DNA from: Escherichia coli
GTDB lineage: Bacteria; Pseudomonadota; Gammaproteobacteria; Enterobacterales; Enterobacteriaceae
NCBI RefSeq assembly: GCF_003334815.1
Contig: NZ_QOWO01000057.1
Direction: 5' to 3' (one strand)
Length of the DNA stretch: 13,444 nucleotides
Positions within the stretch are counted from its first letter, which is position 1. Each line of letters starts with the position of its first letter. A model generated the notes under the pieces. The model did no database searches. It was not told where the DNA came from and worked only from the letters and a program-made list of their open reading frames with translations. The position numbers were made by a program, and so were the translations under genes. Below, in pieces: positions 1 through 898 of the stretch.

Positions 1-77
1 AGCTGATAGAAACAGAAGCCACTGGAGCACCTCAAAAACACCATCATACGCTAAATCAGTAAGTTGGCAGCATCACC
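1..77 (-). mobile_element. IS1 terminal segment: left inverted repeat plus the first ~7 codons of insA (GTG at 20-22 on the minus strand); the element body lies beyond the left window edge
   Basis: The reverse complement of 1-77 reads GGTGATGCTGCCAACTTACTGATTTAGCGTATGATGGTGTTTTTGAGGTGCTCCAGTGGCTTCTGTTTCTATCAGCT, which matches the IS1 left end as I recall it with one mismatch, including the insA start (GTG GCT TCT GTT TCT ATC AGC = MASVSIS). Recognised from memory, not from a search. Confidence 0.8.
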
Positions 78-898
78 ATATAATTCCATTCACCATTTTT
101 TAATTCAAACAGCTCTGGAAGAGATGACGGTTGCAGAGTCATACGTTTGAGTGGTGCATTTTCATCACCCGGGATAACTTTATATCCCATTTTTGCATGG
201 ATCTCCGCGGTACCGGGATAGGCTTCTATACCAATTATTGGGTCATTACCCAACTCAATATTAGCATTAAGTAATGCGGCAAGGGCGAATCCGGAAGAGT
301 TTGCCACCCCTGAGACAGTCATTATCTGATCAATATAGATATCAATCCTTGGCTGCTCATTGGTCCATCTTTTTGCCTGAGAAGTTGGAAGAGTTGAAAT
401 ATATCCTATCGTGGTTCCGGCGTAACCTGGAACATTGCAACCAGGGCCTAATGTTATTTCATGAACTGTATAGTCCTCAACAGGATCGAAAGGGCTCTTC
501 ATAAATAAATTTAGCCGTAAACCTTCTGCTAATTCTGTAGCAGCATGCGCCTTTTTACATATGCCACCATATATTTCGTCTAAAGCTGAGGTGATTTTCA
601 AGTTTCGATAGAGCATACGTCCTGTTGTTGTAATACCATCGGATTCTCTGCATGCTTCTGTCACATAATTAAATGGCCAAGACTCTTTACTAATATCAAG
701 TTTTCTAATTTCGACAACGCTTTTTCCATCGTAATTATGGTTATTGCCACGAGCAAGAGGCAGAAGATAGATATTTTCCGTATCCAGGCGTGCACGTTCA
801 TATTTACGTGTTAACTCACTGTCGACTTTTGGATGATGAAGGAAGTGATTATCTGTAATAATTTGGCTCTGAAGGGTATTGCTTAATGGCATAGACAT
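56..898 (-). CDS. yjiC: Uncharacterized protein, positionally equivalent to K-12 YjiC; the 3' end runs across the IS1 junction
   Basis: 280-aa ORF from the six-frame track, divergent from iraD as in K-12 gene order. The last ~7 codons and the stop (56-77) lie inside the IS1 terminal sequence. Family not recognised from sequence; symbol assigned by synteny only. Confidence 0.55.
   Translation of the reverse strand: MSMPLSNTLQSQIITDNHFLHHPKVDSELTRKYERARLDTENIYLLPLARGNNHNYDGKSVVEIRKLDISKESWPFNYVTEACRESDGITTTGRMLYRNLKITSALDEIYGGICKKAHAATELAEGLRLNLFMKSPFDPVEDYTVHEITLGPGCNVPGYAGTTIGYISTLPTSQAKRWTNEQPRIDIYIDQIMTVSGVANSSGFALAALLNANIELGNDPIIGIEAYPGTAEIHAKMGYKVIPGDENAPLKRMTLQPSSLPELFELKNGEWNYMVMLPTY

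Follow-up and report, generated by a model that had tools for sequence, protein, structure and literature searches.

Where does yjiC end in this stretch of E. coli DNA, and what does that ending mean for the gene? The window, that is, the whole stretch of 13,444 nt analysed here (assembly GCF_003334815.1, contig NZ_QOWO01000057.1), opens inside an insertion sequence. Its first 77 nt, read on the minus strand (GGTGATGCTGCCAACTTACTGATTTAGCG.../GGTGATGCTGCCAACTTACTGATTTAGCGTATGATGG...), correspond to IS1 nt 1–77, left inverted repeat included; as the window starts within the element, only this part of it lies inside. The segment (1–77, minus strand) was identified by reading the sequence, and the transposase that PGAP annotates in a near-identical genome ends at window position 22. 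It holds the left inverted repeat, a promoter-like site at 70–43 and the GTG start codon of insA at 22–20. Across positions 56–898 there is a single long open reading frame, on the minus strand, with an ATG at 898 and 280 codons before a TGA at 58–56. PGAP names this gene yjiC and its product DUF2686 family protein WP_021514505.1. The preliminary description had placed the IS1 terminus at 77 and the stop of this frame at 56–58, and both positions are exact on direct reading.

The stop codon of yjiC is thus nt 20–22 of IS1. Codon 274 (79–77) takes its A and T from yjiC and its G from nt 1 of IS1, whereas codons 275–280 (76–59, encoding VMLPTY) and the stop are wholly IS1, nt 2–22. The coding sequence (56–898, minus strand, 280 aa) is therefore chimeric, with native residues 1–273 followed by residues 274–280, MVMLPTY; the protein ends in ...NGEWNYMVMLPTY and a stop. 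The IS1-derived part of the frame, 56–77 on the minus strand, supplies the third base of codon 274, codons 275–280 and the TGA at 58–56. About seven codons (...MVMLPTY) and the stop had been attributed to IS1 beforehand, a count that resolves into six codons in full, the third base of the codon before them, and the stop. The junction call is a deterministic reading of the sequence and involves no statistical pattern. Its independent check is an exact 9/9 target duplication, ATATAATTC. One copy occupies window 78–86; its partner flanks the opposite end of IS1, outside the window.

Comparison with strains lacking the element located the insertion point. IS1-free genomes (K-12-like 8A, O157:H7 611 and 2024CK-00474) annotate an 831-nt yjiC encoding 276 aa. 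In these three strains and in a fourth, Z1323PEC0010, the protein ends ...EWNYIGK (...LKNGEWNYIGK in 8A), and the gene contains one copy of ATATAATTC. The native end ...AAT TAT ATT GGT AAA TAG has become ...AAT TAT AT/G GTG ATG CTG CCA ACT TAC TGA in the window, the slash marking the junction. Isoleucine 274 is changed to methionine, G275 and K276 are lost and VMLPTY is gained, for a net increase of four residues; put differently, the last three native residues, IGK, are swapped for seven. The 276-aa native gene and the single ATATAATTC of the IS1-free strains together place the insertion just inside the native 3' end, 8 nt upstream of the native stop. The earlier proposal, made from the window alone, was that IS1 had landed at or just inside this end and replaced the original C-terminus. 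It holds, in the 'just inside' form. As a description of sequence, 'near-full-length but altered' was also apt, with 273 of 276 residues kept. No native yjiC allele ending as in the window turned up, all 10 of the native homologues aligned ending in IGK or ISQ. The proteins examined that do end in MVMLPTY come from an IS1-bearing locus or are truncated.

The rest of the element could be read in E. coli LSN03-016011/A, which differs from the window at one base (window 1945) in 5,300 nt compared. That base lies in the 3' end of iraD (CDS 1571–1963), 11 nt before the end of the hypT stop codon at 1956. A single difference implies that the window derives from a very close relative of LSN03-016011/A or from another assembly of that strain. 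In LSN03-016011/A, IS1 spans L001 3310–4077, a complete copy of 768 bp with imperfect terminal inverted repeats (GGTGATGCTGCCAACTTACTGAT... and GGTAATGACTCCAACTTATTGAT...). It encodes an InsA of 91 aa, whose GTG start corresponds to window 22–20, and has an A6C motif at nt 307, where a simulated –1 frameshift yields an InsAB' of 232 aa. PGAP labels the gene in a near-identical genome 'IS1-like element IS1A family transposase, programmed frameshift'. The features that define the IS1 family (a length of about 768 bp, imperfect inverted repeats of about 23 bp, the insA–insB' frameshift and the target duplication, typically of 9 bp) are all present, and the copy at yjiC is complete and, with its reading frames unbroken, apparently intact. 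The two copies of ATATAATTC, at L001 3301–3309 and 4078–4086, form the perfect 9-bp duplication that had been anticipated at the far end of the element; their start-to-start distance of 777 equals 768 + 9. This 9-mer is 8/9 A+T and covers part of codons 271–274. It flanks IS1 on both sides in LSN03, SE15, H10407 and ATCC 8739, and occurs as a single copy in empty-site strains.

The copy at yjiC resembles other IS1A-type insertions in length, inverted repeats, InsA, A6C motif, InsAB' and AT-rich 9-bp duplication. Its mechanism offers no point of difference; what sets it apart is a few private bases and a fixed chromosomal site in 246 genomes. Over the first 77 nt, other IS1 copies typically match at 76/77 and the junction-bearing genomes at 100%, so a private base distinguishes the copy at yjiC. 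SE15, D2 and PA45B match the IS1 left end nowhere else. A rough comparison with the canonical IS1 sequence gives four differences.

We consider it very probable that the allele is the product of a conventional IS1 transposition event at the very 3' end of yjiC. The staggered 9-bp cut at the target duplicated ATATAATTC and left the junction after the second base of codon 274. Translation then enters the left inverted repeat of IS1 in the frame G, GTG ATG CTG CCA ACT TAC TGA and stops after six IS1 codons, converting ...NYIGK into ...NYMVMLPTY. One such insertion, on one haplotype, would have reached about 4.5% of complete E. coli genomes through descent and homologous recombination, and the window strain would have recombined inside yjiC after the insertion. 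Transcripts of yjiC would read into IS1 in the sense direction, ahead of the native uxuR/yjiC hairpin. A short tail is the generic outcome of insertion in this orientation, because each of the three frames leading into IS1 from its left end meets a stop in nine codons or fewer (GDAANLLI and a stop, VMLPTY and a stop, or an immediate TGA).

Alleles of this kind have precedents. In K-12 derivatives, yjiC::IS5 and fimE::IS1 have been described (PMC4498929), and in such fusion or truncation alleles, as here, the reading frame runs into the end of the insertion sequence to the first stop and acquires a short tail. The difference lies in position. Mid-gene insertions destroy the gene, whereas in the window only 8 nt separated the insertion point from the native stop, which spares 273 of 276 residues and lets yjiC pass as intact in annotation pipelines. 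Two further IS1 insertions were seen in this neighbourhood. In strain 98193 (L010 1495–3102), IS1 interrupts the middle of yjiC, which PGAP annotates as a pseudogene in two halves; in strain WEM25 (L011 2884–3581), it lies in the ytiD–idlP spacer, upstream of iraD. Both strains are rich in IS1, and their insertions are independent of the one at the 3' end of yjiC.

To judge what the new tail might do, we compared the chimeric protein with its family. The Pfam model DUF2686 (PF10887) matched the window protein with E = 2.2e-153, residues 1–274 aligning to model positions 1–283 of 285, so that only the last two model positions are lost. With this full-length match and its orthologous position between uxuR and iraD, in a gene order shared with K-12-like and O157 genomes, the protein is still in the family, although it ends ...EWNYMVMLPTY and not in the native ...EWNYI(G/S)(K/Q). 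NCBIfam gave no family match for either the native or the chimeric protein. Native YjiC of E. coli K-12 (b4325, 276 aa) is 93% identical over residues 1–273 and has the same Pfam domain and the same context, uxuR-yjiC-ytiD-idlP-iraD-hypT-iadA. It differs from the window protein in its IGK end, and the 5' two-thirds of the window gene belong to another allele class than those of the other carriers. The DUF2686 YjfZ/YjiC family appears, on the sequences searched, to be confined to Escherichia and Shigella, and conservation of the C-terminus was assessed within these genera. Among 50%-identity representatives, we obtained 34 hits, each 29–166 aa long against the 276-aa query, and no full-length distant homologue; one of these fragments, P0008, independently bears the MVMLPTY tail. 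AlphaFold2 models of native (alignment A2) and chimeric (A3) YjiC had mean pLDDT values of 35.0 and 34.5 and were unusable.

By sequence comparison, the change of tail is small and partly conservative, yet it falls in a conserved motif. Carriers probably make the 280-aa protein and tolerate it, since the chimera retains 273 of 276 residues, methionine is a conservative replacement for I274, and the final two positions differ in nature (E. albertii YjiC ends ...YISQ). The alternative that survives best is that the tail swap inactivates YjiC, the 280-aa frame being a young pseudogene that has yet to acquire further lesions. Conservation of the native C-terminus ...PELFELKNGEWNYIGK extends to homologues of 62% identity, the last 16 residues are among the best conserved of the family and I274 is invariant in 10 of 10 native homologues aligned, so the change could impair function. 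Moreover, the carriers are so alike that time for decay was short, and yjiC is clearly dispensable, because other strains bear IS1 in mid-gene or IS5 insertions (PMC4498929). Against inactivation, the match to Pfam positions 1–283 of 285 is retained, the replacement of isoleucine by methionine is conservative and SQ occupies positions 275–276 in E. albertii. In addition, the frame is intact in every carrier examined and in the recombinant allele described below, and the exact 280-aa sequences recur on more than 1,200 contigs (240 for the window type and at least 1,000 for the SE15 type). Loss of function thus seems to us unlikely, with an appreciable chance of being right. Our search of the literature for an E. 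coli yjiC phenotype found only one, the biofilm defect of a yjiC transposon mutant in an atypical EPEC strain (PMC4100040); most papers on 'YjiC' concern an unrelated Bacillus glycosyltransferase.

How common is the insertion? Megablast against 5,426 complete E. coli genomes found the yjiC region in about 4,900. Counting genomes with at least 80% query coverage, a 160-nt query spanning the IS1–yjiC junction matched 246 of 5,426 (~4.5%), a 161-nt query spanning the far junction matched 238, and a 161-nt empty-site query matched 4,658. The difference between 238 and 246 may reflect a few rearranged genomes, or undercounting, with up to 40 matching pieces taken per record. Carriers include SE15, ETEC H10407, ATCC 8739 and ML35, and came from humans, dogs, pigs and water.

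The element lies between uxuR and yjiC, its left end abutting yjiC and insA running in the same direction as yjiC. The yjiC stop is 33 nt upstream of the insA start, within the promoter-like site, and the displaced native end of yjiC (the target duplication plus TGGTAAATAG) is still there, orphaned, between IS1 and uxuR. Between uxuR and the insertion site is a hairpin (L001 about 3162–3190), with predicted energies of –16 to –19 kcal/mol and a z-score of about –3.5 on both strands, which is plausibly a bidirectional terminator for uxuR and yjiC. A consensus terminator scan with an 8-nt loop limit did not flag it; its predicted loop is 7–9 nt depending on the strand, near or above that limit, and we folded it directly. 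The hairpin is now 777 bp further from the yjiC stop, so transcripts of yjiC should enter IS1 in the sense direction. External read-through has been reported to depress IS1 transposition.

This arrangement bears on a second alternative, namely that the allele was selected, either the new tail or the downstream IS1 (through an altered 3' UTR, loss of the terminator or co-transcription of insA) being beneficial and driving its spread. In its favour, yjiC and insA are co-directional with the 33-nt spacing, 4.5% of complete genomes, among them isolates from varied sources, have the allele, and it has apparently moved between backgrounds by recombination. Yet such a frequency is only modest and could reflect hitch-hiking, recombination being frequent in this region. 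Moreover, the near-identical haplotype of Z1323PEC0010 lacks IS1, and a neutral insertion predicts the same pattern. We therefore regard selection as improbable.

A third alternative is that yjiC contains an IS1 hotspot, the 246 carriers representing several independent insertions at the same 9 bp. IS1 prefers AT-rich targets, and ATATAATTC is such a site; other IS1 copies lie nearby, in mid-yjiC in 98193 and in the ytiD–idlP spacer in WEM25. The carriers also include strains usually placed in different phylogroups (SE15 in B2; H10407 and ATCC 8739 in A). But all four of the carriers examined (SE15, H10407, ATCC 8739 and LSN03) share both the orientation of IS1 and the duplication. Their flanks show 0–2 differences per 300 nt over about 3.2 kb (0–2 across the 2.9 kb to the left of the site, and no difference at all over the 300 nt immediately to its right), unlike those of three of the four IS1-free strains examined (8A, O157:H7 611 and 2024CK-00474), which show 6–15 differences per 300 nt near the site. 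Furthermore, the carriers' IS1 copies are 0–1 nt apart (1 of 768 between LSN03 and SE15) and share a variant left-end base absent from most IS1 copies, and 242 records match the 160-nt junction query at 99% identity or more. We regard repeated insertion as very improbable. From the near-identical flanks, the common orientation and duplication, and the near-identical IS1 copies with their private base, we infer a single ancestral insertion on one haplotype, which would have spread by descent and homologous recombination. One might also suspect an error of assembly or annotation, or a natural allele of yjiC that only looks like IS1, on the ground that the window itself holds just 77 nt of the element. 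This reading is refuted, and left with practically no probability, by the junction in 246 independently assembled complete genomes, the far junction in 238 and a complete 768-bp element with all IS1 features and a perfect duplication.

The window gene also has a mosaic structure. The 3' segment of yjiC, at 78–392, has no differences from the SE15 type and 16 from 2024CK-00474, and its haplotype is identical to that linked to IS1 in SE15, H10407 and ATCC 8739. From 440 to 2340, the relationship is reversed, with 46 differences from the SE15 type and three from 2024CK-00474. This patch covers the 5' part of yjiC, ytiD, idlP, iraD and the 3' end of hypT. The last site discriminating against 2024CK-00474 is at 392 and the first discriminating against SE15 at 440, so the switch places a breakpoint at 393–439, inside yjiC. 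By these comparisons, the window gene is an intragenic recombinant whose patch is like that of IS1-free 2024CK-00474 and unlike that of the other IS1 carriers. Its reading frame is still intact after the exchange. In a megablast search of the 5,426 complete genomes, only three records matched the window yjiC at 99% or more. Between yjiC and iraD (window 1185–1375 and 1491–1574) are a 22-aa hypothetical protein, ytiD and the iraD leader peptide idlP. These small frames all fall within the patch, and the ytiD of the window type is not the same as that of the SE15 type.

A natural counterpart without the element was found with a synthetic empty-site query built from the carrier haplotype. Its best full-length match, with one mismatch in 200, was Z1323PEC0010, which differs from SE15 minus IS1 at three positions in 6.5 kb. 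This strain has no IS1, a single ATATAATTC (L012 3292–3300) and a 276-aa yjiC ending ...NYIGK. It represents either the pre-insertion haplotype or a precise excision. The E262D substitution of Z1323PEC0010 is also present in the MVMLPTY-tailed database fragment P0008, which keeps IS1 excision among the possible origins. Whether ancestral or excised, Z1323PEC0010 shows directly what the insertion of IS1 changed.

The right end of the window, at 13368–13444 on the plus strand, is a second IS1-family left end (GGTAATGCTGCCAACTTACTGATTTAGTG...), the full copy of which was read at L009 1545–2312. It is 90.9% identical to the first copy and inverted, so that both left ends face the 13.3-kb segment from yjiC to mdtM. 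No 9-bp duplication flanks this second copy, which lies between TTAAAATTT and CGACAGCGA; this suggests an IS1-mediated deletion or rearrangement. We considered whether the two copies bracketing the window form a composite transposon and rejected the idea: the left copy has its own duplication and the right copy none, and the intervening DNA is ordinary core genome, its order native. To the right of the second copy, in a near-identical genome (L009 2496–4051), are a frameshifted brnT, then brnA, then yjiA. In K-12, yjiP...mcrBC-hsdRMS-mrr sits between mdtM and yjiA, and this 'immigration control region' is absent from the near-identical genome. A published gene list also gives the K-12 order of the region (PMC4444293).

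Our search of the literature on yjiC and IS1 yielded yjiC::IS5 and fimE::IS1 in K-12 derivatives and a deletion list (PMC4444293), and no paper on this insertion. The allele yjiC::IS1 is an ordinary IS insertion polymorphism that involves no new mechanism, and public genomes in their hundreds already carry it, annotated. It stands out in one respect: the insertion is so near the stop codon that PGAP names the product an intact yjiC. Two 280-aa RefSeq entries named 'DUF2686 family protein', WP_021514505.1 and WP_000062572.1, are chimeras with IS1, and their final seven residues do not belong to YjiC, which matters for alignments of the family and for studies of its conserved C-terminus.

For E. 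coli itself, the insertion provides a clean presence/absence marker that is simple to type (246 genomes carry it, against 4,658 that have an empty site) and tags one haplotype of the recombination-prone uxu–fim/hsd neighbourhood. Z1323PEC0010 and SE15 form a natural pair of alleles for asking whether the tail matters. It is a long shot that the allele is non-neutral, either because read-through quiets IS1 and keeps it as a stable 'seed' copy, or because the tail or the new 3' UTR alters a YjiC-dependent behaviour such as biofilm formation. If true, a quiet seed copy or an altered YjiC would explain why this haplotype came to spread, through recombination, among unrelated E. coli backgrounds.
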